64,000 bases of DNA from a virus (IMGVR_UViG_3300042901_002340); one strand, 5' to 3'; positions 14,466 through 60,764 are shown, numbered from the stretch's first letter. Notes: generated by a model from the letters alone, not told the origin. A program made the numbers and translations.

Positions 14466-14500
14466 TGCAAATATAAGAAAAACCAACGGTATAAAAAAAT
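14466..14500 (-). promoter_or_regulatory. Conserved promoter element (TAnnTTTG -7 motif within ttgcaaatataag, plus an upstream A-run)
   Basis: Lies 25-35 nt upstream of the start of 13696..14442 on the minus strand. It is one of at least 13 copies of the same composite motif. Confidence 0.5.
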
Positions 14501-14506
14501 TATTTT

Positions 14507-14905
14507 GTGATTTTTTTTGAGATATATATGAAAAATTTATCATCCATGGACAATTACATTAAATTATATTCAGATTTCCTAAACGAAGGGGACAAAAAAG
14601 GGGAAAGCTTTGAGGAGTTTTCTAAAACAAGATTAGCTGGAGCTGCTAAGATAACAGAAGCTGCTAAGGAAAAAGGTGGTGATGCTCTTTTAACATACCA
14701 CCATTTTAGAGTTAAACTTCCGGTTTATGAAAAAGCTGCCGCTGGTAAATTTGATGAAGCCGAGGCAAGAGAGGAAATGGAAGCTCTAGTAAAAGCTTTG
14801 GTTAAAGGAACAGCTGGATCTATAAAACTGGAACAGGTAGAATTTCAGAAACTCGTTGGCCTCATAGAGGTCTTTGGTGAATTACTAATAAGAAAAGGTG
14901 CTTAA
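14507..14905 (+). CDS. Hypothetical protein (true start probably an internal Met near 14528)
   Basis: 132-aa ORF. A terminator hairpin overlaps its stop codon. Confidence 0.5.
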   Translation: MIFFEIYMKNLSSMDNYIKLYSDFLNEGDKKGESFEEFSKTRLAGAAKITEAAKEKGGDALLTYHHFRVKLPVYEKAAAGKFDEAEAREEMEALVKALVKGTAGSIKLEQVEFQKLVGLIEVFGELLIRKGA

Positions 14906-14920
14906 ATAAGCACCTTTTTT
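14893..14920. terminator. Bidirectional intrinsic terminator (aaaaggtgcttaaataagcacctttttt)
   Basis: 8-bp stem, A-run and T-run. It overlaps the stop codons of convergent genes. Confidence 0.6.
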
Positions 14921-15207
14921 GTTTCGTTCAGTTTGTCATAATACTTCATCTTGATTGACTTGTATCCATGACCTCCATAGAAAATCCTATTCTTAATAAC
15001 GTTCTTTGCGTCATTGTCATAGTTATCAATGAACCAATCTATATTAATGTTTAATTTGGATTGAACTCCTACGTTAAACTCATTAAATACTTCATTCTCG
15101 ATCTCCTCGATTTTAAATATTCCTTTCTCTCCTCTAAGAAATGCATGTTTAGAAGTTGTTCTTAAGTAGTTAACTACGTCTTGTCTGTTTTGTTCTTTTG
15201 TTTTCAT
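14902..15207 (-). CDS. Hypothetical protein
   Basis: 101-aa ORF. Confidence 0.45.
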   Translation of the reverse strand: MKTKEQNRQDVVNYLRTTSKHAFLRGEKGIFKIEEIENEVFNEFNVGVQSKLNINIDWFIDNYDNDAKNVIKNRIFYGGHGYKSIKMKYYDKLNETKKVLI

Positions 15208-15227
15208 TTTTCTTTTGTTTTATTTAA

Positions 15228-15845
15228 TTATTTTTTTAGAATCCATTGATAGAATCCTGGTTTTATGTTATTGTCCAATTTTTCCCAAAGCCCTGACAGC
15301 TGGACTGATTCTGTCATGTGTATGTTTGATCCCTGTGATTTCCCATTCTCGTCAAATATCTCCCATGTGTAATAGACGTGCATACCTCTTTCTGAATCAA
15401 CCATCTTGTTTTGGAACCAGGTCCATCCCTTATTGGAATTTTCAATCATCTTCTGCTTACCCTGCTCGAATAGTCTATCATCAATCTCCTTACTGGAATC
15501 AAATGCCTCTTTTGCTTGTTTTAATATTGTGTCCTCTCTTTCCTTTCTTTGTGACTCGTTGGCATAGGTTAGTTCGAACTTGAACAGCTTCTCAACGTCT
15601 TCCCATTTTTTGTCTCTTGAGTATTGATTTGAAGCAAAGTCGTAGACATCTTCACAGTATATGTCAATCTTATAACCTCTTGTTGAATAAACATATTCGC
15701 CGTTTTCATTTATGTAGGAATATGGTCCATCCCAATATCCCTCTTTTCCTATTGCATGGATTGGTACACCACCTTCCATTCTGATGTGTCCATTTCCTTC
15801 AGGATCCGCTTCCTGTAGCATCTTAATAAATTCTTTTGTTGTCAT
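15228..15845 (-). CDS. Hypothetical protein
   Basis: 205-aa ORF. Confidence 0.5.
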   Translation of the reverse strand: MTTKEFIKMLQEADPEGNGHIRMEGGVPIHAIGKEGYWDGPYSYINENGEYVYSTRGYKIDIYCEDVYDFASNQYSRDKKWEDVEKLFKFELTYANESQRKEREDTILKQAKEAFDSSKEIDDRLFEQGKQKMIENSNKGWTWFQNKMVDSERGMHVYYTWEIFDENGKSQGSNIHMTESVQLSGLWEKLDNNIKPGFYQWILKK

Positions 15846-15942
15846 CTTATTTGATTGTTATTAATTTTTGTTCATGTAAGCCTAAATAAGGCTCGCTGCT
15901 TGATTATTTTTATATTTTGATATCAATGTATGTCCGAGGATT

Positions 15943-16293
15943 TTAATCGCCAAATTCCTTCTTTAATGCTTCATATTGTTTCTTTCTCTCAGCTTTTTTA
16001 GCCTCCTCATACCTTTTCCTATCCTCCTGTTGTTTTTTCTCCCTGATGATTCTTTCTGCCTCCTCCCGCTCTTTTCTTTCATTAAATAAAGCATCAAGAT
16101 CCGATGTTAGTTCATCAATGTCGATATAATCAGTTATACATTCGCTATCACCACGGCATGTCCAACTATATTGACAATAAAATTGGCCATCCTCTTCTAT
16201 CTCGATTGAATCCGGTTTGTGTCCGGTCTTTGCAATAAATACCTGTTCAACTCTACCTCTAAGAGTTTTTAATTGTTCTAGTGTGATTTCCAT
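15943..16293 (-). CDS. Hypothetical protein with a charged coiled-coil C-terminus
   Basis: 116 aa with a KR/E-rich tail. Confidence 0.5.
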   Translation of the reverse strand: MEITLEQLKTLRGRVEQVFIAKTGHKPDSIEIEEDGQFYCQYSWTCRGDSECITDYIDIDELTSDLDALFNERKEREEAERIIREKKQQEDRKRYEEAKKAERKKQYEALKKEFGD

Positions 16294-16294
16294 T

Positions 16295-16702
16295 TTATTT
16301 GTTTTTAAGTTCCAATTCTTTTTCTCTCCCTATTATAATGTCCCTGTATTTGTAATGGAGTTCGTATGGTAGATTACTTGAAACTCTGTGTGAATTGACA
16401 GAGATTTTTTTAATGTACTCATCCATGGTTTCCTGTGATAGTGTGGAGTAGTTAATCCAGGAGCTTCTTTTTCTAATGTAGATCAGATACTGTAATTTAG
16501 AATATTCGATTTGATAATTTAGATAGACCCCCAATATGTCCCATAACTGCTCGACTGTTAGCATTTTATGTTCCTCCAGAAATAGAATTGTGGTTCTGAT
16601 CTTCATCATTCTAAACCGTAGACCTTTCTGTTTGCCTACGGCTCTTTTAAGACTCAGCTTTTTAATAGAGTCAATGTTTCTAACTTTTAGAATTCCTTTC
16701 AT
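16295..16702 (-). CDS. Hypothetical protein
   Basis: 135-aa ORF. Confidence 0.5.
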   Translation of the reverse strand: MKGILKVRNIDSIKKLSLKRAVGKQKGLRFRMMKIRTTILFLEEHKMLTVEQLWDILGVYLNYQIEYSKLQYLIYIRKRSSWINYSTLSQETMDEYIKKISVNSHRVSSNLPYELHYKYRDIIIGREKELELKNK

Positions 16703-17350
16703 GATGTTTGTAGATTTTTTAGAGATAACGAAAGGTGGGACAAAGATTTCCTAACCTGCGGAGTACCAAAAAAGCACGCAGAAGTATAGGCGTCAACATC
16801 AGGCTCAAAAAACAATGATGCCTCTGTGACGTGTCTGAATTTTTCGTAAAGTTTAATTAAATGTGCTTCTGATTTTGCGGAGAGACAAATTATAGAATTT
16901 GATGTCTCTTTCCATTCTTTGAACTTTGTAGGATGTTCGTGTGCAAAATCTGCGATTGAATGTGTACTCTGTACAATTTGGTAACCTCCGGTGAGGTCGG
17001 ATCTGGTGATTACTACCAGTTTCGTTTCTTGAAATTTGTTAATCTAAGTCATTGTGCTCTAATTTTAGTTTTTTAATAAATCCAGTAATAGCGCAGTGAA
17101 CGGACTGCGTGTTACGTCTTTTAATTTCTACCGTTACCGGATTTATGTTTATTATATATTCAATTTTTTATTTTGTTTCACTTTTTATGCCCTATATTCT
17201 TCTGGATTAATTCCTTCCAGAAATGATAGCTTTGCATCGGTTAGATTGATCGATGAATAAACATCGGTGATCTCCCTCCTAGTTCTCGTGCTTCTATATA
17301 AGCAAACCTCGTAAATCCATTCATCAAATGTCATATTCTATATTTTTTAG

Positions 17351-17442
17351 TGACCAGTACAGGATTCGAACCTGTCATCCGTTCTATCGCCATTTCTTGT
17401 GGGATTCGAACCCCGATAGATAGGACTGCCAACATCCGGTCA
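17351..17442 (-). tRNA. tRNA-like element T1 (92 nt): canonical T-arm plus 7-bp acceptor stem, non-canonical interior
   Basis: Minus-sense 3' end is ACAGG-TTCGAAT-CCTGT-ACTGGTC-A. The 5' end TGACCGG pairs fully with it. The interior holds a second T-loop-like GGG-TTCGAAT-CCC inside a 7-bp hairpin TCTATCG/CGATAGA. Confidence 0.4.
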
Positions 17443-17587
17443 TAAAAATCATCCATATAAACACCCTTGAGGTTGGATCGTTCTGAAATACGTTCAGAAA
17501 CCTTAGTTGATTACCCCGGTTTAGTTTACATCGTCCAATTGACCACACCCTCTGACCCTTAGCGAGGTATGATGAATGAATGATTAG

Positions 17588-17697
17588 TGGTCGGTATAGG
17601 ATTCGAACCCATTTATATCGTGTGCATAGCCTTACACATAAAGTTCGTTTGACTATCCCTTCAATTTACGATTGCCTAGCCAATCAGCCACCTGACC
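17588..17697 (-). tRNA. tRNA-like element T2 (110 nt)
   Basis: 3' end ATGGG-TTCGAAT-CCTAT-ACCGACC-A. 5' end GGTCAGGTGGCTGATTGG... pairs with the 3' strand at 5 of 7 positions. Too long for a standard tRNA. Confidence 0.35.
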
Positions 17698-17943
17698 AAA
17701 AATGATGAATCAAAAAATTTCCGCCTTGGCTAAAAAATATCATCATCTGCTAAGACTTCTTTGAATGGTTCAGGTACCTAAATAGTTCAAGCTATTCTGA
17801 ATCTACATGTCATTAAAGCATTAGCTTTTTTAAGGTTCAAATCCGAACTGTAACTCATTTAATCCTTAACTTGTCGAAGCAAGTTTCTAGGTTTACCCCT
17901 AGCACTCCGTAGATACCACAGAGTAGTTAACATCGCTGATTTG

Positions 17944-18047
17944 TGGTCTGGACAGGATTTGAACCTGTATGAAGTTTACACCATTAAGGGACTTACACCC
18001 ACCTATTAAGGCTTTCTTTAAGCGTCTACCAATTCCGCCACCTGACC
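17944..18047 (-). tRNA. tRNA-like element T3 (104 nt) with a type-II (Leu/Ser/Tyr-like) D-arm
   Basis: 5' end GGTCAGG-TG-GCGGAATTGGTAGACGC is essentially the E. coli tRNA-Leu D-arm. 3' end ACAGG-TTCAAAT-CCTGT-CCAGACC-A. About 53 nt lie between the D-arm and T-arm, too many for a canonical anticodon arm plus variable arm. Confidence 0.45.
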
Positions 18048-18052
18048 AATTA

Positions 18053-18559
18053 TTATTCGCAATTAATTTTTCGAATGTTATAATTTGTAAATAAATTTAC
18101 ATAGTAATTTATTTCGTCTGGTCCCATTTTATATTGAAAAGAGACGTTATCAATCCCGTTAATGTATCTAACATAATTAATTTTTTTACTTTTCAAAATT
18201 ATGAATTCCAATTCTGATAATTTAAAATAAAAAATATTTCCACTTTTTGATTCATCCGTGGATTTTATTTTTAATCTACCCCCATCCTTAAATGAAAAGA
18301 GCAATTGACATTTTTTACTTGGACCACCAATGTTTGATTTAATTACTATAAGGCCATGGCAAGACAATCTATTGCCATCTATTTGGTAATTTGGTTTTAA
18401 TGTAAACCACTTTGTTCTATCAATATTTGAACAAACCACACCACTTGGTCCATAAATTTCGGTCTTATTGGTGCAGTCATCAATGGTAACTCGATCGTTT
18501 TGTGAATATATTGAATTTATCGCTAATATTAAAGCTAATGCAATCAATGTTTTTTTCAT
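18053..18559 (-). CDS. Secreted or lipoprotein-like hypothetical protein (start moved to the internal Met MKKTLIALALILAINS)
   Basis: The ORF-track N-terminal extension (18560..18676) overlaps tRNA-like element T4. The internal Met is followed by a signal-peptide-like segment. Confidence 0.5.
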   Translation of the reverse strand: MKKTLIALALILAINSIYSQNDRVTIDDCTNKTEIYGPSGVVCSNIDRTKWFTLKPNYQIDGNRLSCHGLIVIKSNIGGPSKKCQLLFSFKDGGRLKIKSTDESKSGNIFYFKLSELEFIILKSKKINYVRYINGIDNVSFQYKMGPDEINYYVNLFTNYNIRKINCE

Positions 18560-18578
18560 TATTTTTATATTCTTATTA

Positions 18579-18736
18579 GTAGTCAGAGTGGGATTCGAAC
18601 CCACGATGGTAATTGGAGCGTTGATTCTTCCACTGTCGCTAACAGGGGTTCCAAATCCTGTGCGTCCTTTCTCCAATTTAGCGTCTGCCTCGTTATAACA
18701 GGATTTCTCGCATTATAAGCCTTCCGCCACCTGACT
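18579..18736 (-). tRNA. tRNA-like element T4 (158 nt) with a ~32-nt insertion in the D-loop region
   Basis: 5' end AGTCAGG-TG-GCGGAA[GGCTTATAATGCGAGAAATCCTGTTATAACGAG]GCAGACGC. 3' end GTGGG-TTCGAAT-CCCAC-TCTGACT-A. The acceptor stem is 7 of 7 with one G-U pair. Confidence 0.35.
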
Positions 18737-18810
18737 CCTAGCTTCTAACAGATTAGGAATGTCTGTCGCTTTACACAGCTTAGCTATTTTTGGGTTTCCC
18801 CTACTCTCCG

Positions 18811-19176
18811 CTAATTGAGTTTTTCTATATGAGCAATAGATCCAATGACTCTACCATAATGTGATGGTGTTTTCATTGTGCCTATTATCTCACCTTTTTG
18901 ATTTATGTAAGCCGCCTCCCTTATCCAACCTATCTCTTTTGGGATTGGTAATGGCTTCCATGGTAATCTTTCTCCCTTGAATCTCCTTTTTAATTCTGAA
19001 TTTAAAAGCCTCTGAGCCTCACAGTTACAAAAATTAGCTCCTGTTAAAATCTCTCTGAACCAAAGTATATTCGATAGGTGCTGATGATCTATTTCCGAGA
19101 ATTTTTTAGTTTCTCCTAGAGCTGTTTTCCATAAATATTCTTTCATCGTTATGTTTTTTGTGATCCCACCGTGCAT
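18811..19176 (-). CDS. Hypothetical protein
   Basis: 121-aa ORF. Confidence 0.45.
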   Translation of the reverse strand: MHGGITKNITMKEYLWKTALGETKKFSEIDHQHLSNILWFREILTGANFCNCEAQRLLNSELKRRFKGERLPWKPLPIPKEIGWIREAAYINQKGEIIGTMKTPSHYGRVIGSIAHIEKLN

Positions 19177-19273
19177 CGAACACGTTACATCAGTTTTAGA
19201 GGCTGACCCAATTGCCGAATTGGATTAAGTTGAAGGACCATTTAAAACCAGAACCTAAATCCTGGTTTTATTT

Positions 19274-20095
19274 TTATTCAATATCTTCGATACCGCTACC
19301 AAATATTTGCTTCGTTTTTGTCGAGGTAAATCCTGGTTTGTAATCAATCTCCTGTCTCTTCAGAATTCTGTTATATGCATTATTAGGAAAGGTCTGCAGT
19401 AATATATTATTAGCTTTTGCTATGTTTTGTGACTTCACTTCTAAAGCTAAATATCCAGCTCTTTGTGTTTCAACGAATTGTGATAAGTCTGCATAGAAGT
19501 TGCTAAATTGATCATATGGTATCGGTTGATTTTCTTGTAACCATTTCCAGGTAAGTTTTTCTCCGTCACGTCTTCCGTCCATGATCATCTTAGTTATCTC
19601 GATGAACGTCTCTTTATTTTCGATCAGCACATTGTGTTTAAGGGTATAAGATTTCCACATGTTGTCGTAGTATGTTTCTTTCTCCTGGCTCACTTGAGCA
19701 TAATCATTTTGGTATAGAACGGTTTGGTTATAGATGGCTTTTGAATCCTTATAGAATCGGCTCAATCCGATAACTAGAAGTAACAGAACTAATAAACCAG
19801 CTACGCTTCCGAATGGATTTTTATCGCCGTCCTTAGATTCTCTGAAATCCCATTCTAAATTCTCATCCAATGACTTTCTCATTAGAATAACTACGTAGAC
19901 AAATAATCCTACTAGGAAAGCAATGTTGAATGTTGTGTGCATTGCTGAAAAACTTAAGGAACCATTGTCCTTTACCGTGTCACCTGGGAACTGTACCGTC
20001 CACATGAAGCCAAATGCCAAAAGCGAGATGACTGTGCCAATCATCTTCGAGATGAATTCTGGCTTACTTAATTTACCTTTTTTAAAGATACTCAT
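19274..20095 (-). CDS. LemA-like membrane protein (paralog of 25938..26495)
   Basis: N-terminal TM helices. The shared block YD.MWK...M.GR.DG..L..KW.QE..P...F..LYADLS...E.QR.G resembles the LemA family. Confidence 0.45.
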   Translation of the reverse strand: MSIFKKGKLSKPEFISKMIGTVISLLAFGFMWTVQFPGDTVKDNGSLSFSAMHTTFNIAFLVGLFVYVVILMRKSLDENLEWDFRESKDGDKNPFGSVAGLLVLLLLVIGLSRFYKDSKAIYNQTVLYQNDYAQVSQEKETYYDNMWKSYTLKHNVLIENKETFIEITKMIMDGRRDGEKLTWKWLQENQPIPYDQFSNFYADLSQFVETQRAGYLALEVKSQNIAKANNILLQTFPNNAYNRILKRQEIDYKPGFTSTKTKQIFGSGIEDIE

Positions 20096-20120: not shown

Positions 20121-21374
20121 TTATTTTTGCTCGTCATCAGTCCATGTAATGACTGGACAATTCTTTTTATACATACTATGAATTAAATCCCTAACCATTC
20201 CGAAGAAATCCACCATATATATAATACCCTGTACGATTGATCTGAATAGAGGTTCTACCCAACCAAAGAGGAATTTAAAACCTCTCCCTATACCCCTGCC
20301 GAATTTATAAACTGGCATCTTGGGACTTGGAATTTTTGGTGGATTGATCTTGCTCATTTGCATAAAGGTCCATTTGAGGGATGGGTTTATAACATACTTG
20401 AATGATATGTATATTACAAATCCTGCAGCTACCACCGAAGCTATTGTTAAAATTGCATATCCCACATATTTCCAATTTATCCAACCAACTGCTTTAACAG
20501 TGGCTACACCTAATCCCCAGATTATAAAGTAAGACATGATAACCACCAGACCTATACCAATGATCTTAGAAGTTTTGGACTGTTTAAATTCCTCTATCTT
20601 TACTTCTCTCACCTTTTTATTTTGGTATTTTTCCTCATCTTTCTGATCTCGTATTTCTCTTTTTAGCCTTGCTTCCTCGTCTCTTCTCATTCTTTCCTCC
20701 CTCTCCTCTTGACATTTTTGGTTATACCAAGCGGATCCTTTATCCTCTATTGCATATCTGTCCTTAAAATGAAGTTCGTATTGATACTTCTTAAAGATCT
20801 TACTGTGTGTAAGTACATAGGCTTCTCTATCAGTCATGGTTGGAAGTTTATCCAAGCAACTTTTAACAAAAGCTGCTCTTCTTTTTTCGTCCATCCTTTT
20901 AGAATATGTTGAGCAAGATTCGATGAAATTTGCCCCCATCTTACCAGTCATTTTGACAAGTAAAATAAGTGGGAATGTTAAAAATACCACAACCATTATC
21001 CAGAAATAAGGACACATGGTAGGGTGAACTTTATGTGGTTCTTTACCAAAAACCCATTTGTATACTTTACAATGCCAAGCATCCTTCTTGAAAGTGTAGA
21101 AATTCTTTTTTGGTTTTGGTTCTGCTGTTAGCCCGGGAATGTATTTGTTTTCCAGGCTAATGTCATACCCCTCAATACCCAGCTGACATTTACAGATTTT
21201 GTTCTCTCTGTCAATATCCCATTTTGTTGAGATGTAGACAGATTCAATATCTGGATTTTCTTTGATTTGATCTTTGTCCTGAACCTTACCGATTATTACG
21301 GTTCTAGATTCATTTAGGATCATGCTCTTCAATTCATATCCAGATTTGGTGGTGTGCAAATTTGAAAGTTTCAT
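20121..21374 (-). CDS. Hypothetical membrane protein with a charged coiled-coil segment
   Basis: 417 aa, several predicted TM helices, and an E/K/R-rich central region. Confidence 0.55.
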   Translation of the reverse strand: MKLSNLHTTKSGYELKSMILNESRTVIIGKVQDKDQIKENPDIESVYISTKWDIDRENKICKCQLGIEGYDISLENKYIPGLTAEPKPKKNFYTFKKDAWHCKVYKWVFGKEPHKVHPTMCPYFWIMVVVFLTFPLILLVKMTGKMGANFIESCSTYSKRMDEKRRAAFVKSCLDKLPTMTDREAYVLTHSKIFKKYQYELHFKDRYAIEDKGSAWYNQKCQEEREERMRRDEEARLKREIRDQKDEEKYQNKKVREVKIEEFKQSKTSKIIGIGLVVIMSYFIIWGLGVATVKAVGWINWKYVGYAILTIASVVAAGFVIYISFKYVINPSLKWTFMQMSKINPPKIPSPKMPVYKFGRGIGRGFKFLFGWVEPLFRSIVQGIIYMVDFFGMVRDLIHSMYKKNCPVITWTDDEQK

Positions 21375-21395: not shown

Positions 21396-21430
21396 GGCAA
21401 ATGTATGAAACATTTTCGATATAAAAAAAT
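21396..21430 (-). promoter_or_regulatory. Conserved promoter element (ggcaaatgtatg ... ttcgatataaaaaaat)
   Basis: Lies upstream of the start of 20121..21374. In gene orientation TACATTTG matches TAnnTTTG. Confidence 0.5.
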
Positions 21431-21847: not shown

Positions 21848-22405
21848 TTAAACTTTTTCGTCAAAAAATACTTCAAATTCGTCTCTCGAGTAAACCCCAA
21901 AAAGACCAGATCGTGCTGGTTCATTGATTGATACGGTTCCTCCAAAATCATCTCTTTCACCATATCTATATTTTAGTGATCTCTTGGTGAATGCCTTTTG
22001 CCATGACTTTATATCTGTTTTAACCCAAGATCCGTGTCTATCTATAACTTCATTTGGTTTTACGTGATCCCTCAAATGATGCCAGATGTTCCCATCCATT
22101 TTAATAAACTCTTTTCTCATGGAGCTTATAGCTTTCTTTCTTCTTTTATTGTAATCATCCCAGAGTTTTTCTGATTCCTCTATTGTTCTATTTTCATCAT
22201 ATTCAACCTCCTTTGGAACAGTACTTGGTTGGTATCTTCCCATAGAACTAATAAGAAAAAACTCTTGGGCAATCTTAGGCATAGCGTAGAAACCTCTAGT
22301 AGCGGGTGGGGAATGATACGTAGCCGGTTCTGGCTTGTACCCCTTCTGCTTCTTTGGGTTAACCCCGCCGAATCTAACGAACGTATTTAGATCTTTTCCT
22401 TTCAT
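21848..22405 (-). CDS. Hypothetical protein
   Basis: 185-aa ORF. Confidence 0.5.
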   Translation of the reverse strand: MKGKDLNTFVRFGGVNPKKQKGYKPEPATYHSPPATRGFYAMPKIAQEFFLISSMGRYQPSTVPKEVEYDENRTIEESEKLWDDYNKRRKKAISSMRKEFIKMDGNIWHHLRDHVKPNEVIDRHGSWVKTDIKSWQKAFTKRSLKYRYGERDDFGGTVSINEPARSGLFGVYSRDEFEVFFDEKV

Positions 22406-22447
22406 GCTGCAAATGTATTAAATGGAAGCGAAATAAAAAAATAAAAT

Positions 22448-24344: not shown

Positions 24345-24711
24345 TTTTCTTCCATTTTATTTTATCTAAGATGTATTCACACTGGATTACGATTTTACTG
24401 AATTGGACCATATCGAAATTTATTGCTATGACCTTCATTCCTTTCCATTTCTTATCGAATTCACCTAAATCGGTAGAAGGCCAAGTGTTCTCCTGATGCG
24501 CACTTATCAATGGTCCTCCTGGCGGGTCAATAGCTATAATGTTTGTTCCAACCTCACCCCTTATAGTTCTAAGACCACCTGGCATAAACCCAGTCATTTC
24601 AAATTCTAATAGACCAATTCTTTTAAAGAGAATCTTATCCGAATGTCTATTTAGATATGTTGCTTTTTCCTTAATAGTATCCATTCCTTTTGTTACCGTT
24701 GAACATGTCAT
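24328..24711 (-). CDS. Hypothetical protein
   Basis: 127-aa ORF. Confidence 0.45.
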   Translation of the reverse strand: MTCSTVTKGMDTIKEKATYLNRHSDKILFKRIGLLEFEMTGFMPGGLRTIRGEVGTNIIAIDPPGGPLISAHQENTWPSTDLGEFDKKWKGMKVIAINFDMVQFSKIVIQCEYILDKIKWKKIKNPA

Positions 24712-26537: not shown

Positions 26538-26571
26538 GCAAATATATGGAAAAGATTCAACATAAAAAAAT
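26538..26571 (-). promoter_or_regulatory. Conserved promoter element (ggcaaatatatg ... ttcaacataaaaaaat)
   Basis: Lies upstream of 25938..26495. Confidence 0.5.
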
Positions 26572-30942: not shown

Positions 30943-31033
30943 GTTAATTATTTAGAATTTATACAAATTTAAGTGATTTTGTTTCATAAAAAAACCCGTG
31001 ATTACTCACGGGTTTTGCATATATGTTCAGGTA

Positions 31034-32980: not shown

Positions 32981-33014
32981 GCAAATATATGACAAAATTT
33001 CGAATTAAAAAAAT
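32981..33014 (-). promoter_or_regulatory. Conserved promoter element (gcaaatatatg ... ttcgaattaaaaaaat)
   Basis: Lies upstream of 31034..32947. The terminator hairpin aaaaaatccgaaatttatttcggatttttt follows it. Confidence 0.5.
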
Positions 33015-33196
33015 AAATCACAAAAAAAATCCGAAATTTATTTCGGATTTTTTGTTAGTATATTCCCCAATCTGGAATGGTTATTATCTTTTCCTTCCTT
33101 GGCCTTTTAACCTTTGATTTTTTAGGAAATTCCATGTCTTCATCAATCTTTTGTATGAAGGTTTTAAATGTTTTTATATTCTCAAAAGTTTTCATT

Positions 33197-34972: not shown

Positions 34973-35355
34973 TATTTTTTTAGATTAATTGCTTTTTTTA
35001 GACCCTCCTCCAGGGCATCTTCATAGATAGTGAATGCTTCGTCACATTCAAAAGTTGTTTCATTATCGTCCATTATTAGCCATTCGTAATGACCTTCTTT
35101 TAGTGCGGGAACAATGAAAACATTTATTCCTAATTCTTCCCTCAGCCATTTCTGAAGAAGTGATTGTGTTGGCGCCGATATTGATTCTTCAGTATTATTA
35201 CATTTTCCAATACCTTGTTTTGAGAGTAGTACCTTCAAATACTCAGGATCCCAATAGTATCTTCCATCAACTGGAATATTGAATCCCTTTGACTTAGCTA
35301 ATTCTGCGGTCTCTATGGTTATTAATTTTTCTTCCATTCCTTTATTATTCCTCAA
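34972..35355 (-). CDS. Hypothetical protein, family B paralog (see 54794..55939)
   Basis: Shares LAKSKGFNIP...YYWDP and PTQSLLQKWLREELGINVFI with three tandem ORFs at 54.8-55.9 kb. Confidence 0.5.
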   Translation of the reverse strand: MRNNKGMEEKLITIETAELAKSKGFNIPVDGRYYWDPEYLKVLLSKQGIGKCNNTEESISAPTQSLLQKWLREELGINVFIVPALKEGHYEWLIMDDNETTFECDEAFTIYEDALEEGLKKAINLKK

Positions 35356-35385
35356 ATATATGAAATCCTTTCGAATAAAAAAAAT
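35351..35385 (-). promoter_or_regulatory. Conserved promoter element (ctcaaatatatg ... ttcgaataaaaaaaat)
   Basis: Lies upstream of 34972..35355. Confidence 0.45.
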
Positions 35386-35421
35386 CCCGAATGATATATT
35401 CGGGATTTTTTATTTTGGTGA

Positions 35422-38466: not shown

Positions 38467-38500
38467 GGCAAATATAAAAAAAAATTCCGGATAAAAAAAT
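38467..38500 (-). promoter_or_regulatory. Conserved promoter element plus hairpin terminator
   Basis: ggcaaatataaa ... aattccggataaaaaaattttattcggaattttttt. The hairpin ends gene 38520..38852 and the promoter serves 37960..38451. Confidence 0.5.
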
Positions 38501-38519
38501 TTTATTCGGAATTTTTTAA

Positions 38520-45140: not shown

Positions 45141-45174
45141 TGCAAATATATGGCATTATTTCGAGATATTAAAA
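45141..45174 (-). promoter_or_regulatory. Conserved promoter element (tgcaaatatatg ... ttcgagatattaaaat)
   Basis: Lies 25 nt upstream of the start of 44043..45116. Confidence 0.5.
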
Positions 45175-45212: not shown

Positions 45213-45362
45213 ATGAAAAAATTAATAACTGTAAGGATAGACGCAGCGACATATGATCAATACAGAAAGGTGTTGGAAGAAAATGGAATGGATATGAGCA
45301 AAAGAATACGTAATTTTATAGATTCAGAAATAAAAGATCTTGGTGATGGAAAAAATTGTTAA
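45213..45362 (+). CDS. Ribbon-helix-helix (CopG/Arc-like) small DNA-binding protein
   Basis: MKKLITVRIDAATYDQYRKVLEENGMDMSKRIRNFI has the beta-strand then two helices pattern. The ORF-track N-terminal extension is rejected. Confidence 0.45.
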   Translation: MKKLITVRIDAATYDQYRKVLEENGMDMSKRIRNFIDSEIKDLGDGKNC

Positions 45363-48878: not shown

Positions 48879-48913
48879 CAAATATAAAAAAAAGATTCGA
48901 AATAAAAAAATTA
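48879..48913 (-). promoter_or_regulatory. Conserved promoter element plus a perfect hairpin terminator (gattcgaaataa-aaaaa-ttatttcgaatc, T6)
   Basis: Lies upstream of 48116..48862 and downstream of 48911..49267. Confidence 0.55.
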
Positions 48914-49156
48914 TTTCGAATCTTTTTTGATCCCGTCCCAAAGCTGTTTAAAGTGATTGTCACCTGTGGGAGTTGATGTTATTATCACCTTGCCCTCAAA
49001 GTCCCCCTCTATTTTAGGAAAGGTCTTCTCGTATGTTTCTGGATGAATTGTATTGATGTAATTTTCTCTGAAATATTCCTCAGATTCAATGCATTTTCTC
49101 AATTCCTTCTTGATCTTTTTTTTCTTATGATTCTCGTTATATTGTCCCATTTGCTT
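48911..49156 (-). CDS. Hypothetical small basic protein (start moved to MGQYNEN)
   Basis: ORF 48911..49267 overlaps 49137..49511 by 130 nt. The internal Met at 49156 removes the overlap. Confidence 0.35.
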   Translation of the reverse strand, partial: KQMGQYNENHKKKKIKKELRKCIESEEYFRENYINTIHPETYEKTFPKIEGDFEGKVIITSTPTGDNHFKQLWDGIKKDSK

Positions 49157-52607: not shown

Positions 52608-53040
52608 TTATAATGAAAAAATACATTCTTTTTTTGGATTGAATATTCTTAGAACAGTCCCCTGTCCAAATACCCAATTGAAGTAATGACCTCGATATTT
52701 AATAGTACCTCCACCAAAACTTGCATCAAAGCTATCAAGTTGTTTGTTATAAGGTCTCCCACCTATCTCGGCAGCATCGAATACAAAGTACATCAGATTT
52801 CTAGGATGTGGCATGTGACCTTTAGCGTAACATCTTCCCTCATATGCATCATCATGTCTAGCAATCTCCTTAGCTAATTTGAATTCAAATTCCGCTCTGG
52901 ATAGGCTCTCGATATACTTGAAGGCTCTTTGTTTTCTGTCAGCCTCCCTTTTCATCTTAGCCCCAATTCTTTCCATTGAAGCCTTTCCCTCTGGGGTCTC
53001 CATGAAAGCCTCTAATTTCTCCAACATATCCGATGCCATG
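52608..53040 (-). CDS. Hypothetical protein (start moved to the ATG for MASDMLEKL)
   Basis: The ORF-track start at 53066 is TTG and lies inside the conserved promoter motif. The ATG at 53040 sits about 25 nt downstream of the motif, as at other genes. Confidence 0.5.
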
Positions 53041-53062: not shown

Positions 53063-53096
53063 GCAAATATATGGATTTAATTCGAGATATAAAAAT
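53063..53096 (-). promoter_or_regulatory. Conserved promoter element (gcaaatatatg ... ttcgagatataaaaat)
   Basis: Lies upstream of 52608..53040. Confidence 0.5.
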
Positions 53097-53106
53097 TTAT
53101 TTCAAA

Positions 53107-53403
53107 TTATTTTTTAAGATTTGGAAACTCAAGAAACTCAGAATCCAATATTTCTTTTATCATTTTCAGTTTAATACCTGATGGATCTGTTATATGGAGA
53201 TGTCTTATGCTGGATGTTATTGATTTTATATCGTACGTAAGTCCCCATCCGGAAGCACAGGTATCTGCATCTCTACCAAACATAGCTTCAAAAGTATCCT
53301 TAACCCTTTGTCTCAATGGGAAATCCGCACCAAATTCCATCTCGCTTCTTTTAACTGGACCGATCTCGCAGTACCAATACTCGTCTTTTTCTTCTTTATT
53401 CAT
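53107..53403 (-). CDS. Hypothetical protein
   Basis: 98-aa ORF. Confidence 0.45.
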   Translation of the reverse strand: MNKEEKDEYWYCEIGPVKRSEMEFGADFPLRQRVKDTFEAMFGRDADTCASGWGLTYDIKSITSSIRHLHITDPSGIKLKMIKEILDSEFLEFPNLKK

Positions 53404-55587: not shown

Positions 55588-55939
55588 TTTCTCCTACTAT
55601 TTTAAAAGCTCTTAACAAGCAAACTTCCAATGCTCCCTCGTATTCATCGTATCTTCCACCAACGTCATAATAAATAGCCCCTTTACCTCTAACCACAGAG
55701 CATCTGTAACCGCATCCATTAATGGATGCATCAATTAAAAAATGCAATCCATGGACCTCTCTAAACCATCTCTGTAATAAAGACTGTGTCGGTGCGCATG
55801 GTAAAGCACACTCTGAATTATGACATTTTGTCGTTTGCTTTTCATATCTACCATTCTGATAGAACCCATCACATTGCCAATCAAAATTAAAATTTCTGGC
55901 TATCATGGCTATATTTGGGGAAACTATTTGATCCTGCAT
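55580..55939 (-). CDS. Family B paralog
   Basis: IARNFNFDWQCDGFYQNG ... PTQSLLQRWFREVHGLHFLI is nearly identical to PTQSLLQKWLREELGINVFI in 34972..35355. Confidence 0.5.
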   Translation of the reverse strand: MQDQIVSPNIAMIARNFNFDWQCDGFYQNGRYEKQTTKCHNSECALPCAPTQSLLQRWFREVHGLHFLIDASINGCGYRCSVVRGKGAIYYDVGGRYDEYEGALEVCLLRAFKIVGENE

Positions 55940-56468
55940 TATCTGAAATTTTCCATTCTTTTTCTTATCGCTTCCGCAGCTTTATAATCTTCTGATTCAA
56001 TTGCATTTTTTAAATAAACCTGACACTCAATCTCAGTTAATAACTCGATTGGTTTTCCGTCTATGGTTCCTCGAGGTGAACTTGATGATGTGGAGTTTTT
56101 TGGTTCCTCTATATCTGCACTAAATGACGGATCGATCCCCATGACCTTCTTAGCCTCCTCGTAATTTCTTCTCCAGCAGGCAGATTTGTTCGATTTTACT
56201 TCCTTCCATTTTATCTTATAAACATTTCCATCATGAACATCGACATAGACATTATCTTCTGTCCACCCACAAAGCTTTGCGTAACTTTTACCATTTTTTC
56301 TTAGAACATCGTATGCAGTGTCCGAATTAAATTGGTCCAGAATCAATTTATCACCAACCTTCCAATCCTTATATTCAGATTTTCTTGATCTTATTTTAAA
56401 AAAAGATCCAATGGCGATTATAATCACTATTGCAAATATTGCTAATGCTATGTAAGTTAATGTTTCCA
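55939..56468 (-). CDS. Hypothetical membrane-anchored protein (start moved to the ATG for METLTYIALAIF)
   Basis: The track start at 56487 is TTG within the promoter motif. The ATG at 56468 is followed by a TM helix. Confidence 0.5.
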
Positions 56469-56483
56469 TATGTAAAATTTTAT

Positions 56484-56517
56484 ACAAATGTATGAAAAAA
56501 TTTCGAATTAAAAAAAT
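56484..56517 (-). promoter_or_regulatory. Conserved promoter element (acaaatgtatg ... ttcgaattaaaaaaat)
   Basis: Lies upstream of 55939..56468. Confidence 0.5.
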
Positions 56518-57251: not shown

Positions 57252-57252
57252 G

Positions 57253-57789
57253 CTAGGATTCCTTCGCTTCTAGTTCAACGTTTTTAGCAAGAAATTTCCA
57301 CATGAAATTGAACAGCTCATCATTACCATTTTTGATACATTGGTAAAGTATGGAGTCAAGATGCCCGGAGATTGACGTTCTTTCGTACGTGGTATTTTTC
57401 CTGTTCAACTGACTCAATTCAACACCGAGTGAATAGTATTCAGTTTCTCTGTTGTTCACGTCAAAATCTGCTTCCCTTCTAATCTTTGCTCTTATAGATA
57501 GAATTTCATTTCTCCTTTTGTTCTCTTCGTCAGTTATGATTGAATTTGTCATGCATAACGAGGCACTAAAATAATCACACTGTCTAAGAGCCTTATGGAA
57601 GTTAATAAACCACCAACTATCATCGGGAGCTTGTTGATATTCAGTAACTATGTACTCTAGAAAATCTGGATCACCTAGATGTAGAATGCTAAAGAGATTC
57701 CAATAAATAAAAAGTTTTGGTTCATTGTCTGACTTTTTTCTTAGAGAATCCAGAAATTTCTCCTCCAGTGTTTGATTTTTATTTTCCAT
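57253..57789 (-). CDS. Hypothetical protein
   Basis: 178-aa ORF. Confidence 0.5.
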   Translation of the reverse strand: MENKNQTLEEKFLDSLRKKSDNEPKLFIYWNLFSILHLGDPDFLEYIVTEYQQAPDDSWWFINFHKALRQCDYFSASLCMTNSIITDEENKRRNEILSIRAKIRREADFDVNNRETEYYSLGVELSQLNRKNTTYERTSISGHLDSILYQCIKNGNDELFNFMWKFLAKNVELEAKES

Positions 57790-58000
57790 CTGATATCCTC
57801 TCGTATTTCTTAATTAGACCATTCATTTTGAAGTAGATGAATGTGAGTACTATCGCTCCAATTGAAATAAGTACTGTGGTATCAATTGATTCTGAATCCG
57901 ATAAGTAAACGAAGAATGGAATAAAAGTCCAAAGAACTATTGCCATTATTCCGGTGCTTCTTCTGAAATCCTTAGCCTCCTTTAATGTTTCTGGTGTCAT
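57779..58000 (-). CDS. Small membrane protein
   Basis: 73 aa with two TM helices. Confidence 0.4.
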   Translation of the reverse strand: MTPETLKEAKDFRRSTGIMAIVLWTFIPFFVYLSDSESIDTTVLISIGAIVLTFIYFKMNGLIKKYERISDGK

Positions 58001-58034
58001 GAGTTTATTTTTAAATTAAAAATCCGAATTATCA

Positions 58035-58069
58035 CACAAATATATGATAATAATTCGGATTAAAAAAAT
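58035..58069 (-). promoter_or_regulatory. Conserved promoter element (cacaaatatatg ... ttcggattaaaaaaat)
   Basis: Lies upstream of 57779..58000. Confidence 0.5.
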
Positions 58070-58271
58070 AACAATAACAATTATTTTAAATTGTTTCTTT
58101 GGTATTTTATGGGATGGCTTAGTTCTTTCTATCTAAATTGGCAGTTTTATCTTGCGATTTTTCTTGAGGTGTAGTGCAGCAGCCCACTGCAGTTCTCTCC
58201 TTACCCAACTATTACCAATGCGTCCATCCTATAAAATACCGTTCATTCACCACGAAGAACATTTTATTTTT

Positions 58272-58340
58272 GTGGAGAGAGAAGGATTCGAACCTCCAAT
58301 CTTATTGCTTTACCTACACGTGACTTTAAGCATATCTCCC
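58272..58340 (-). tRNA. tRNA-like element T5 (69 nt)
   Basis: 5' end GGGGAGA pairs 7 of 7 (one G-U) with 3' TCTCTCC-A. T-arm GGAGG-TTCGAAT-CCTTC. The interior GCTT-AAAGTCACGTGTAGGTA-AAGC does not give a canonical D-arm or anticodon arm. Confidence 0.4.
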
Positions 58341-58351
58341 CATTTATATTT

Positions 58352-58458
58352 GTGGCCAGTGCAGGAATCGAACCTGCTGTTAATGCCAAAGCTCCACGAC
58401 ATCAACCATTGCTTTATAGGAACTTTCTAATGTGCAGGTTCCATCCCTGCATTCTGGC
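58352..58458 (-). tRNA. tRNA-like element T6 (107 nt)
   Basis: 5' end GGCCAGA; 3' end GCAGG-TTCGATT-CCTGC-ACTGGCC-A. The D-arm-like hairpin is GCAGGGATGGAACCTGC. Confidence 0.4.
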
Positions 58459-58543
58459 CGTTAAAAACAGAGGTCATCCAGTATACGGGGTGCGCCTCAC
58501 CTTATGCATCTAGGGCCCGTGCGTTTGTGTTTTACTTGTTTTG

Positions 58544-58620
58544 TGATTGGAACAGGATTCGAACCCATTTTTACCAGTACTCTCAATAGGCGTCGCGCCA
58601 CAATCAAGCTATTTCCAATC
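58544..58620 (-). tRNA. tRNA-like element T7 (77 nt)
   Basis: Perfect 7-bp terminal stem GATTGGA/TCCAATC, discriminator A, T-arm ATGGG-TTCGAAT-CCTGT. The interior has a GGCG-CGA-CGCC hairpin and no obvious anticodon stem. Confidence 0.45.
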
Positions 58621-58806
58621 GTTTAAAGAGCCTAGCCTGACCTGCCAGACAGTACATGTCGAGATTAATTTGGCGCCTCGTTATGTAGTAGACCCTTATG
58701 TTTTAACCCTGGACTTGGACTCTGCCTCGAACGATTTTATTAGTGATCCGCGGAACCACCTTATTTCGTGTCCAGTTATCACTGCAGCTTACAGTGACGT
58801 GGCTAG

Positions 58807-58933
58807 TGGGGGAAACAGGAATCGAACCTGTGACACTTTGAATCAGCTAAACCTCGCCTTTGTGTGAAGACGTCATAGATGCTATCTATGATGTAAGTTA
58901 GAGATGGATACCATACCGTTGGTCTATTCCCCC
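58807..58933 (-). tRNA. tRNA-like element T8 (127 nt)
   Basis: Perfect 7-bp terminal stem GGGGGAA/TTCCCCC-A, T-arm ACAGG-TTCGATT-CCTGT. The interior has a perfect 8-bp hairpin TCATAGAT-AGC-ATCTATGA. Confidence 0.4.
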
Positions 58934-59172
58934 TGTTGGAAACCAGTTAAAGCCGACCGATTTCCCTGTTATACCGACTTTTCCACTAGGTTAGGAAACT
59001 GTCTTCTGCAAAACCACCCTTACTTTTCCTTAAGGCTAGGAAAACTTTTAAACTACCCGGTCCTATTAACCTTGTTTTTAAATCTAAAACAATGTTCTCG
59101 TCCGATGGAGATGCACAATAAAAACTGCTTTATCTTCGTATTCTTTATCTTATTTCCCTTATTAATTACATT

Positions 59173-59206
59173 GCAAATATATGAAATTCTTTCGGAATAA
59201 AAAAAT
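59173..59206 (-). promoter_or_regulatory. Conserved promoter element placed to drive the minus-strand tRNA-like cluster 58272..58933
   Basis: gcaaatatatg ... ttcggaataaaaaaat. No protein gene lies between it and element T8, about 240 nt downstream on the minus strand. Confidence 0.45.
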
Positions 59207-59221
59207 AAATAATGAAAAAAA

Positions 59222-60124
59222 TTACATATTTAATCCTTCCTTCATTGATTCCTCCGAAAGCTTTCTAGCTTCCTCCATCTCTAAAGTGGATAAGAATTTA
59301 TCCAGTGTCAGATCACAATATTCATCTATCCAGTCGCCTATAAAGTACAATTTTCTAGTACCTTTAAGCACACCAAATAGAATTGGATCCTTGGCCTTTT
59401 CAACCTCGGCTTTTGTCATCTTTGTGGAATTGTCATACTTATCAAAATGCATAACCGCATAATTATCAAATAGCTCCGAAACGTCATATTTTTTCTTTTC
59501 CTCTATAACATCTTCCGGAATCATTCTGGCGTAGTTTTTTATCCACGTCAGTTTCAGCATTTTATCTTTTAGGTTTGCTTTTTTATAGAACTTAACTACA
59601 TCCTCCTCGGTAACGTATTTCATCTCACCAACCTCCAATAGTTTAGCTTCCGCAAGAACCCCATCCTTCTTATCTCTAAGTATTTCCAAGAAAGCTATCT
59701 GTCCATTATTCTTTGCAGTTTCTATTGCATTTGTATAGAATTCGACCGAGCCTGGATTTACCTCCAGAGTTTTTATTGAATCCTTAACATCATTAAAGAA
59801 TTCATCCACTGATTGATATCGGATTTTTGTTATCTTCTTGTTTGGAAATAGCATCTCCGCAGCTTTCAATTTAATCCAACTTTTAAACGTGTGCTCATGC
59901 ATGTGCCTATAGTGAAAATAATCAACCGCACGTACTTCTATTGAATCGGTGAGTGAATTTGCAGAATTTGAATCCCTTGTCATGGCATCCGAGAATGAAC
60001 TCATTCCACCAACCACGAAAGATCCGTTTGCTACTGATATGCTATTATTTTCCACCTTCTTGATGGCCTTGGGCATAGAGATGAAATTTTCAAATATCTC
60101 TAACTTGTTGGAATTTGTTATCAT
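59222..60124 (-). CDS. Hypothetical protein
   Basis: 300-aa ORF. Confidence 0.5.
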   Translation of the reverse strand: MITNSNKLEIFENFISMPKAIKKVENNSISVANGSFVVGGMSSFSDAMTRDSNSANSLTDSIEVRAVDYFHYRHMHEHTFKSWIKLKAAEMLFPNKKITKIRYQSVDEFFNDVKDSIKTLEVNPGSVEFYTNAIETAKNNGQIAFLEILRDKKDGVLAEAKLLEVGEMKYVTEEDVVKFYKKANLKDKMLKLTWIKNYARMIPEDVIEEKKKYDVSELFDNYAVMHFDKYDNSTKMTKAEVEKAKDPILFGVLKGTRKLYFIGDWIDEYCDLTLDKFLSTLEMEEARKLSEESMKEGLNM

Positions 60125-60127
60125 TGA

Positions 60128-60712
60128 CTAGTCTTTAAAAAGGTTTAATAAATATTCAAACATTGGTGCTAACTTATGATCCTTGTCATCGCCTCCGAGT
60201 TTAGTAACAAAATTGGCATTCTCTTTTTTGTACTTATCGTACATGGAGCTGCCTGTCATTTTTCCATATTGCACATTAGCTATACGGTCACAAAGCTTAA
60301 CGAAAACTGCTCCTGGTGTTGCTACTATTCCTGCATAGTATTTGTCATTGGCTCTCTCCGCACGATTTTTACCTTTCTCGTTGGTAACTGCATAAACTAT
60401 GTCAGCAGCATCTTTACCGAGATGATTTACCACGTCGTTATATGATGTTCTAGTATCTTCGATTGTATCATGCCCCCAACCAGCTTTTCTACAAGCCATT
60501 CTAAGGGAGACAAAGCCAATTCTGCTTCCGTCCAGAATCTCTCTAGATTTTCCGGTTTGCATGTCTTTCGTGTCGTCTAGGAGGTGTTCAAATTGCTGAG
60601 CCACCCTATCCACCATTCTTAGGTGAAAGCTGTATGGGATATATTTGTCATACATGTGGTTGGTGTTATCGTGTTGTGCTATGCACCAGTCTACGTAGGT
60701 TGTCAAATCCAT
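60128..60712 (-). CDS. HD-domain hydrolase, RelA/SpoT-Mesh1-like (possible small alarmone (p)ppGpp hydrolase)
   Basis: GWGHDTIEDT matches the SpoT/Mesh1 HD.xED signature. Upstream histidines HLRMVDRV precede it. 194 aa, typical of stand-alone hydrolases. Confidence 0.5.
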   Translation of the reverse strand: MDLTTYVDWCIAQHDNTNHMYDKYIPYSFHLRMVDRVAQQFEHLLDDTKDMQTGKSREILDGSRIGFVSLRMACRKAGWGHDTIEDTRTSYNDVVNHLGKDAADIVYAVTNEKGKNRAERANDKYYAGIVATPGAVFVKLCDRIANVQYGKMTGSSMYDKYKKENANFVTKLGGDDKDHKLAPMFEYLLNLFKD

Positions 60713-60730
60713 TTCTTTTATTTTTTATAT

Positions 60731-60764
60731 CGCAAATGTAATAATTAATTTCGATATAAAAAAA
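60731..60764 (-). promoter_or_regulatory. Conserved promoter element (gcaaatgtaa ... ttcgatataaaaaaat) followed by the terminator hairpin aagccggaaaaaatccggctt
   Basis: Lies upstream of 60128..60712 and downstream of 60812..61384. Confidence 0.5.

Follow-up and report, generated by a model that had tools for sequence, protein, structure and literature searches.

A repeated intergenic element of a giant phage as a probable promoter class for a Bacteroidota host polymerase

Which polymerase reads a near-identical intergenic element that recurs many times, always in the same orientation, in the genome of a giant phage? The question is raised by a 64,000-nucleotide (nt) stretch of DNA from the virus IMGVR_UViG_3300042901_002340, referred to below as the window. 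The window is part of a 430,120-base contig that was assembled independently in several samples; it has about 36% G+C and is densely coded, mostly on the minus strand. An earlier note on this DNA had described, between positions 14466 and 60764, a composite element joining a terminator hairpin to a promoter of the Bacteroidetes type. The DNA examined here comprises the window and up to 10 kb on each side (84 kb, about 20% of the genome), and the architecture of the element was also searched for in other phages and in bacterial genomes. The elements are probably strong promoters read by the RNA polymerase of the Bacteroidota host together with its primary sigma factor, and they most likely form an early class.

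Copy number, order and placement of the element

The anatomy, copy number, placement and conservation of the element can be read directly from the DNA. The window contains 14 discrete copies and one weak copy of an element of about 50 nt, all on the minus strand. Along the direction of transcription, an A-rich tract, TTTTTTTA, three free positions (N3), CGAA, nine free positions (N9), the box TAnnTTTG with a following C, and aTAATt succeed one another at fixed spacing, giving the consensus (5′ to 3′, minus strand) AAatA..A-TTTTTTT-A-ttt-CGAA-a.t.TTTca-TAtATTTG-C-a..aTAATtaa. The first T of the run lies 24 nt from the TA of the box in 13 of the 14 copies and 23 nt from it in the other, and C follows the box in 11. 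When each strand was searched for the composite pattern, 14 sites came from the minus strand and a single, unrelated one from the plus strand. The weight matrix derived from those 14 sites recovers the same copies at 39-60 bits, while all other sites in the window stay at or below 8 bits and the top score of 20 shuffles is 14 bits; because nothing else in the window exceeds 8 bits, the family is discrete. Its outermost members, at 14468-14499 and 60733-60764, match the limits given in the earlier note and confirm the family that it had described.

The motif had been written there in a single orientation. Its promoter half is in fact a minus-strand sequence and its TTCGA...A7 half a plus-strand one, and the true order is T7-A, N3, CGAA, N9, TAnnTTTG. 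CATAYATTTGC has six exact matches, all on the minus strand, and TTCGARWTAAAAAAAT (at most one mismatch) has nine, all on the plus strand, with 0.12 expected from shuffles in either case. The literal strings are rarer than had been stated, CATA[TC]ATTTGC having been placed before 13 or more genes.

Thirteen of the 14 copies sit between called open reading frames (ORFs), in a window that is 89% coding. The remaining copy, at 59174, overlaps nothing but a plus-strand ORF of 98 amino acids (aa) that was judged spurious. The copies stand upstream of genes, in the same orientation and with a short leader, the G of TTTG lying 5-44 nt before the next minus-strand ATG in 13 of the 14; the copy at 59174 heads a 1.1-kb ORF-free region with tRNA-like sequences. 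The flanks of the same contig hold four more copies in 9.4 kb to the left and one in 8.7 kb to the right, which brings the putative host-polymerase class to at least 19 promoters.

The copies and their hairpins are given below. Element coordinates run from the start of the T-run to the G of TAnnTTTG, bits are weight-matrix scores, and targets are the genes that a copy would drive.

60733..60764, minus strand: copy 1, 51 bits; target 60128-60712, ATG 21 nt past the G
60762..60792, minus strand: terminator hairpin of the upstream ferritin-like gene, 13 pairs; the T-run of the element is its U-tail
59174..59205, minus strand: copy 2, top-scoring, 60 bits; heads the 1.1-kb ORF-free stretch with tRNA-like genes
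58037..58068, minus strand: copy 3, 43 bits; target 57779-58000 and downstream genes
58021..58061, minus strand: hairpin and T-run across the TAnnTTTG box of copy 3 (RNAfold); AATCCGAATTAT of the element is one arm
56485..56516, minus strand: copy 4, 52 bits; target 55939-56469; T-run overlaps the stop of the upstream gene
53064..53095, minus strand: copy 5, 53.5 bits; target 52608-53039
53078..53109, minus strand: weak hairpin at copy 5 (RNAfold); T-run as loop, TCGAA box in the 3′ arm
48879..48910, minus strand: copy 6, 52 bits; target 48116-48862 and the PRPP synthetase gene 47198-48103
48888..48928, minus strand: terminator hairpin over copy 6, 18 pairs; T-run as loop, ATTTCGAATC as 3′ arm, T-rich spacer as tail
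45143..45174, minus strand: copy 7, 51 bits; target 44043-45116; divergent GIY-YIG homing endonuclease gene upstream
38469..38499, minus strand: copy 8, 47 bits, the sole copy one base shorter in spacing; target the kinase-like gene 37960-38451
38479..38517, minus strand: hairpin at copy 8 (RNAfold); T-run as loop, CCGGAATT as 3′ arm, then T9
35353..35384, minus strand: copy 9, 46 bits; target 34972-35337 and downstream genes
35379..35411, minus strand: terminator hairpin of the NAMPT gene, 15 pairs; the T-run of copy 9 is its tail
32982..33013, minus strand: copy 10, 51 bits; target the Band_7 protein gene 31034-32947
33024..33053, minus strand: separate terminator hairpin with its own T-tail, 13 pairs, 10 nt upstream of copy 10
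30964..30994, minus strand: weak fifteenth copy; terminator hairpin, T7A, TAAATTTG at spacing 23, CGAA absent; 22 nt before the ATG at 30942
26539..26570, minus strand: copy 11, 53.5 bits; TG replaces CG; target 25938-26495
22410..22441, minus strand: copy 12, 39 bits; target 21848-22405, whose ATG coincides with the predicted +1
21398..21429, minus strand: copy 13, 56 bits; target 20121-21374
14468..14499, minus strand: copy 14, 48 bits; target 13696-14442 (protein with two Myb-like repeats)

The conserved core of the upstream box is (T/C)CGAA, and its CG, present in 13 of the 14 copies, is the most conserved phage position. The palindromic TTCGA half that had been taken as conserved does not reach this level: the 10-nt palindrome ATTTCGAAAT occurs in one copy only (48879) and the 6-nt TTCGAA in four of the 14. 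A palindromic operator for a dimeric regulator was ruled out on these counts. Avoidance or retention of TTCGAA as a restriction site was also rejected, the hexamer count being ordinary (24 found, 19 expected).

A hairpin had been described as often part of, or next to, the element; it accompanies seven of the 14 copies and does not belong to the core. A terminator scan placed long-stem terminators at or beside the copies at 60733, 48879, 35353 and 32982, and folding with RNAfold added weaker hairpins at 38469, 53064 and 58037. Their geometry varies. The hairpin can lie directly upstream, with the T-run as its U-tail (60733, 35353 and the weak copy at 30964); the T-run can form the loop, the CGAA box the 3′ arm and the T-rich spacer the tail (48879, 38469 and 53064); or the hairpin can span the TAnnTTTG box (58037). 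The copy at 32982 has a fourth, looser layout, with a separate upstream terminator. Because seven copies lack a hairpin, the predicted terminator is an optional module outside the conserved core. Retention of the T-run merely as a terminator tail was ruled out as well, since a hairpin lies directly upstream of it in only two strong copies and the weak fifteenth, and host tRNA promoters carry the T-run without hairpins.

Proposed promoter layout and the same architecture at host genes

The earlier note had placed the host among the Bacteroidetes, and a Bacteroidota host is well supported independently of the motif, because a Shine-Dalgarno signal is lacking, sigma-70 matches are few and the relatives of one protein point to the same phylum. 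Upstream of 89 start codons, no Shine-Dalgarno enrichment was found, as had been noted, and the region is A-rich; sigma-70-type promoter matches in the window fall below shuffle expectation. The one window protein that was searched against a phage collection, a 403-aa protein (24671-25882), has its closest relatives in the Tenacibaculum jumbo phages PTm1, PTm5 and pT24, in the Prevotella Lak megaphages and in a 595-kb uncultured phage, and all of these relatives with known hosts infect Bacteroidota. A crAss-like phage with its own polymerase, which the Bacteroides-type box had brought to mind, was ruled out by the genome size of about 430 kb and by the giant-phage proteins of PTm1/Lak type.

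In Flavobacterium psychrophilum, the sigma-A box TAnnTTTG was mapped at -12 to -5 (PMC9723704), and in Bacteroides promoters TAnnTTTG is the -7 element, the spacer is AT-rich and the -33 TTTG is the weaker box (PMC7366714). The Bacteroidetes -7 box that had been recognized in the element is present in all 14 copies, with the right orientation and distance to genes. If the G of TAnnTTTG is placed at -5, as the reported position of the sigma-A box implies, the start site would be an A about 5 nt past this G, within the conserved aTAATt. Upstream of the box, a T-rich stretch would lie at -17 to -15, the (T/C)CGAA box in the spacer at -26 to -22 (CGAA at -25 to -22), T7-A at -36 to -29, on the usual site of the -33 TTTG, and the A-tract at about -45 to -38, where it would act like an UP element or bent DNA. 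The ATG served by copy 12 begins at the predicted +1 (TTTGCAGCATG, window 22405-22441) and the same layout recurs in the unrelated contigs L031, L037, L100, L099 and L117, which fits a start 5 nt after the G and suggests that the element promoters may occasionally give leaderless mRNAs.

The -33 TTTG-like element of the earlier note was not found. In none of the 14 copies does TTTG stand about 19 nt upstream of the box, the position being taken by TTTT of the G-less T-run. Two host tRNA-Gln promoters, which were not selected by the pattern, carry A7-T7-G at the same 24-nt spacing. Because these two promoters and the related Tenacibaculum phage PTm1 have TTTG there, the T-run is a G-less version of the -33 region; among host tRNA promoters, some carry T7A and some T7G in this place. 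Reading TTCG as a shifted -33 TTTG was ruled out, as the 11-nt spacer would be far too short.

The exact pattern TTTTTTTA-N3-CGAA-N9-TAYATTTG was scanned in one genome per species from 185,579 bacterial and archaeal species. It was found at 35 loci, of which 21 were classed as genuine Bacteroidota chromosomal loci. In seven of these 21, a tRNA gene lies directly downstream: tRNA-Ser(TGA) in the isolates Algibacter miyuki and Flavobacterium sp. ZT3R18, tRNA-Cys in three Bacteroidales, tRNA-Pro in F. psychrophilum and tRNA-Leu in a Chitinophagaceae. A ribosomal-protein gene follows in three (rplC, rpmH and rpsO, identified by eye from the first ORF sequences), and the orders in which the architecture precedes tRNA or ribosomal-protein genes are the Flavobacteriales, the Bacteroidales and the Chitinophagales. 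Since such genes account, roughly estimated, for a few percent of promoters, the association is far from chance. The positions left free in the pattern also resemble the phage element in 19 bacterial matches, both for the upstream A-tract (p = 3e-5) and for the C after TTTG (p = 9e-3), in comparison with other TAnnTTTG sites in the same loci. The part of the F. psychrophilum start-site table covered by our search holds no T7A-CGAA strings. On the strength of the genomic matches, the extended motif is modelled on a class of host promoters and is no private feature of the phage. The single phage promoter class proposed earlier stands as a discrete class, distinct from the ATATATA motif described below; the phage specificity ascribed to its conservation over about 35 nt does not, as the same architecture is present at host tRNA and ribosomal-protein genes.

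After the box, host tRNA promoters (L129, L131, L137, L144 and L148) are GC-rich (CACCGCA or CACCCGCA) whereas phage copies are AT-rich (aATATAATT or CAATATAATT), a difference that may matter for growth-rate control. Among the 35 genome loci, six lie on small contigs of 'uncultured bacterium bin.88' (L130, L133, L140, L150, L153 and L154; CALAYS01...), which represent a mis-binned close relative of this phage with 87-90% protein identity. Two others (L127/L132) lie on one 47.7-kb phage-like contig, JALFSR010000100.1, which is labelled Clostridiales bacterium SUG976 and carries at least seven copies of a promoter variant.

In metagenomes, the exact pattern was found at 120 loci or more. Among the matches listed, several phage contigs have 5-8 copies each, 20-30 nt before small genes of the same strand, and 27 of 155 loci (120 metagenome loci among the matches listed and the 35 genome loci) share a protein with the window. 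Many IMG/VR contigs carry the architecture, including contigs of 270-476 kb, and in the relatives L022, L036 and L048 the same promoter stands directly before ordinary tRNA arrays. An IMG/VR scan that left CGAA free (T7A-N16-TAYATTTGC) returned 121 unique sites. CG stands at offset 11 in 22 of these sites, compared with counts of 0-6 for the other offsets, and the local consensus at the CG is T-t-y-C-R-A-A. The CGAA box is, on this distribution, a real positional but lineage-dependent feature. An over-strict first motif scan of IMG/VR gave no match, nor did a megablast of 20 kb against the phage collection.

Candidate readers of the element

The reading polymerase, the start site, promoter strength and timing are predictions drawn from these features. 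With host-read promoters, the phage would transcribe blocks of small accessory genes, nucleotide- and NAD-metabolism genes and tRNA-like genes from the onset of infection. It would mimic the promoter architecture of host tRNA and ribosomal-protein genes and so compete for the polymerase, and elements modelled on the strongest promoter class of the host would for that reason probably be early. In about half of the copies, one short cassette would both end the upstream transcript and start the next.

Several points weigh against the host polymerase with its primary sigma factor as the reader. The assignment is made from sequence alone, and about 20% of the genome has been read, so that a phage sigma factor or activator may lie elsewhere. 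The canonical -33 TTTG is missing from every copy, its G replaced by T, and PTm1 has the canonical TTTG at that very position. A -10-like box combined with a non-canonical upstream box is also the look of a T4 middle promoter. The bacterial matches were chosen with a pattern that forces CGAA, and the two unselected tRNA-Gln promoters lack it. Finally, CG is found in 18% of the unbiased viral sites with the spacing of the element and tends to be all-or-none per contig, as might be expected if one phage lineage had a factor of its own. The CGAA box, with its CG at -25/-24, is what the host reading explains least and gives the strongest reason to think of a phage factor.

Such a factor is at the centre of the reading as middle-type promoters, in which host sigma-A would read the -7 box while a phage activator, maybe with a sigma-remodelling partner as for MotA/AsiA of T4, would read the T7A-N3-CGAA half. 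T4 middle promoters keep the -10 element while a MotA box replaces the -35, and they serve tRNA and nucleotide-metabolism genes (PMC2988021). The absence of the -33 G, a conserved box at a fixed distance from the -7 box and the all-or-none tendency of CG among phage contigs would all suit this design, and the ORF at 13696-14442, kept in relatives, encodes a candidate DNA-binding protein. However, the upstream half, CGAA included, is present at chromosomal tRNA and ribosomal-protein genes of several orders, where the phage factor is absent, and this occurrence weakens the case for an activator. The 64 kb also offer no other sigma-A-like class that could act earlier, as every promoter-placed intergenic TAnnTTTG of the window belongs to one of the 14 copies or to the weak fifteenth. 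Matches to sigma, anti-sigma, MotA or AsiA families are absent among the ORFs of the window, although MotA-like and AsiA-like proteins need not resemble those of T4, and the -33 box itself was reported to be dispensable in F. psychrophilum (PMC9723704). We therefore regard middle-type promoters as unlikely. It is highly improbable, moreover, that the phage supplies the reader of the elements, as a sigma factor of its own or as an RNA polymerase that it encodes or carries in the virion, and that their host likeness is only a resemblance. It is common for giant phages to encode transcription machinery, some 80% of this genome lies outside the examined DNA, and the family is unusually uniform; yet the -7 box is the exact host consensus down to the following C, the full architecture stands at host tRNA and ribosomal-protein genes, and neither sigma nor polymerase domains turned up in the 84 kb covered.

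The repeats could also be chiefly recombination or mobility sequences (through PeSL-type shuffling or a link to homing endonucleases) or terminators, with promoter activity secondary; this is the explanation to which we give the least credence. Related contigs with 73-96% DNA identity differ from the window by gene-sized insertions and deletions, and of their 43 breakpoints seven fall no more than 40 nt from an element, compared with 4% for random positions. The intergenic baseline is 24%, so there is no excess beyond being intergenic. The relative L016 has the 45134-45331 promoter segment a second time, beside an inserted LAGLIDADG endonuclease gene (L016 6301-7101) at a different site, and in L254 the ferritin-like gene is absent, with one junction exactly at 60766, beside the element at 60733-60764. 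A recombination sequence would, however, explain neither the uniform orientation of the copies nor their distance from start codons nor their match to host promoters, and the hairpin is present in only half of the copies. A PeSL-style role in shuffling is possible.

Host-read promoters being the preferred reading, a more tentative proposal concerns their upstream half (A-tract, T7-A, N3 and CGAA, -45 to -22). It might be a distinct, undescribed promoter module of Bacteroidota that marks the strongest tRNA and ribosomal-protein promoters across several orders and is read by conserved host machinery, whether the alpha subunit, a region of sigma-A or a dedicated factor. Many unrelated phages, including the 270-476 kb giants, would then have captured it without the GC-rich stretch, possibly escaping growth-rate control. 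We hold this to be possible, if doubtful.

Gene content, a second promoter motif and known phage systems

The window encodes collagen-repeat tail fibres, NAMPT, PRPP synthetase, a Thg1-like enzyme, a NADAR domain, a nucleoside deoxyribosyltransferase-like protein, a small protein with a Gp23-family domain and GIY-YIG/NUMOD3 homing endonucleases, and a flank encodes RNA ligase, a CCA-adding enzyme, a tRNA-binding domain and SmpB. Most small ORFs near the elements have no Pfam family. A NAD salvage set lies downstream of elements (NAMPT at 35422-37083 and PRPP synthetase at 47198-48103), as do the NADAR domain protein and the Thg1-like guanylyltransferase (42452-42931, 50428-51282). The minus-strand gene at 13696-14442 encodes a 248-aa protein in which a basic linker stands between two Myb/SANT-like repeats (W-S-..-D-D...EI[AG]KILGRT). 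No Pfam family matches this protein, which is kept in several related contigs and is a candidate DNA-binding regulator. Two large tail-fibre-like proteins with collagen-like repeats are encoded on the minus strand at 6299-9775 and 9878-11326, in a region whose G+C content (0.42-0.43) is higher than elsewhere in the window. The GIY-YIG (NUMOD3) homing endonuclease genes at 1350-2126 and 45346-46122 are free-standing and run opposite to the early-type genes.

The ORF-free stretches of the minus strand at 16700-19300 and 58000-59200 hold about nine motifs of tRNA T-arm and acceptor end (GGTTCGAATCC...CCAC). ARAGORN made no canonical tRNA call in these stretches. The Rfam tRNA model matches at 17944-18047, at 58807-58933 (with a 71-nt insert in the anticodon region) and at 58273-58341 (without an anticodon arm), and there is a weak match to the tmRNA model at 58361-58377. 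Genes for SmpB, the CCA-adding enzyme family, a tRNA-binding domain and RNA ligase adjoin the tRNA-like regions (L167 1-8660, beyond 64000, and window 63602-63961).

A second motif, (G/A)ATATATA, was found 5-25 nt before every plus-strand gene, before the gene of a 1158-aa tail fibre and before a few other minus-strand genes; often, one palindromic ATATATA site is shared by two divergent genes. Its intergenic sites are as follows.

2935, 9795, 12408/12413, 14523/14528, 23181, 23705/23710, 27838/27865, 33963, 45185/45190 and 61407: (G/A)ATATATA

T4 late promoters (TATAAATA) resemble this motif, and by analogy it is probably a late promoter class. The presence of two motif families indicates that the phage may have at least two temporal classes of promoters.

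Possible links to T4-type myoviruses are one Gp23-family ORF, the GIY-YIG/NUMOD3 endonucleases and relatives among PTm1-type jumbo phages with T4-like structural annotations; core T4 genes are outside the examined DNA. The Gp23 (major capsid) family protein, of 301 aa (29461-30366, minus strand), is encoded among early-type genes, far from the tail-fibre genes, and is too short for a major capsid protein of T4 type.

Strong host-type promoters joined to stem-loops are known as PeSL cassettes, which occur in five positional subclasses (PMC2839356; Arbiol et al. 2010) and are concentrated in the orphan-rich plastic regions of T4-type phages (PMC2839356; Comeau et al. 2014, PMC4122927). As in PeSLs, a conserved cassette is repeated between genes where coding is dense and small orphan ORFs abound (14 copies in 46 kb). 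The elements described here also share with PeSLs the putative host primary-sigma-type promoter with an AT-rich upstream tract, and, where a predicted stem-loop is present, its variable position, upstream, over the upstream box or over the downstream box. They differ in a promoter of Bacteroidota -7 type in place of sigma-70 -35/-10, in stems that are AT-rich or CCGAA-based and not GGGG...CCCC, in a stem-loop present in half of the copies, and in a phage of about 430 kb that is only distantly linked to T4.

The early promoters of T4 are 'uber' host-type promoters (UP/-35/TGn/-10) with additional consensus positions (Hinton 2010, PMC2988021), and they are thought to out-compete host promoters (PMC2988021). 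Near-perfect core elements, extra conserved positions, an A/T-rich tract and many copies before early genes are features that the present elements would share with them, whereas the sigma family and the layout of the boxes differ, with a G-less T-run upstream and a CGAA box in the spacer. T4 middle promoters are similar in combining a good downstream box with a conserved non-canonical upstream box at fixed spacing; however, the box of the element lies at -28 to -21 and the MotA box at -35 to -26, and the former also occurs at host genes. Compared with Bacteroidota sigma-A promoters, the -7 box and its following C are identical, and the T-run, preceded by an A-tract, takes the -33 position; the phage differs in using one near-invariant version many times.

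The small Bacteroides phage B124-14 (L161) has a different conserved promoter family, with about five near-identical extended sigma-A promoters (2829, 4186, 6398, 24515 and 37961) ahead of gene blocks. These promoters (TAAAACTTAAAGTTTCGATTGCA...TCCTTATATTTGCA...AAAGGAAAC) have the canonical -33 TTG at a 19-nt spacer but lack the T7A-CGAA module, and the weight matrix finds no match in this phage. The B124-14 family may be the source of the synthetic-biology phage promoter P_BfP1E6. A Bacteroides phage promoter gives strong constitutive expression in uninfected B. thetaiotaomicron (bioRxiv 10.1101/2025.03.18.644028).

Overall, the strategy is one familiar from phages, and the T7A-CGAA module is the modest new lead. 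For an uncultured phage of about 430 kb, the elements point to Bacteroidota as the host phylum and outline a transcription programme, with a putative host-polymerase class of 19 or more promoters and a separate ATATATA class. They would extend the T4-type design, in which many over-optimised host promoters are often fused to terminators, to phages of a phylum with another promoter grammar. The promoter sequence is a candidate for very strong constitutive expression parts in Flavobacteria and Bacteroides, and the T7A-CGAA module may help to explain what makes a promoter strong in Bacteroidota, a phylum whose upstream elements are not well characterized.

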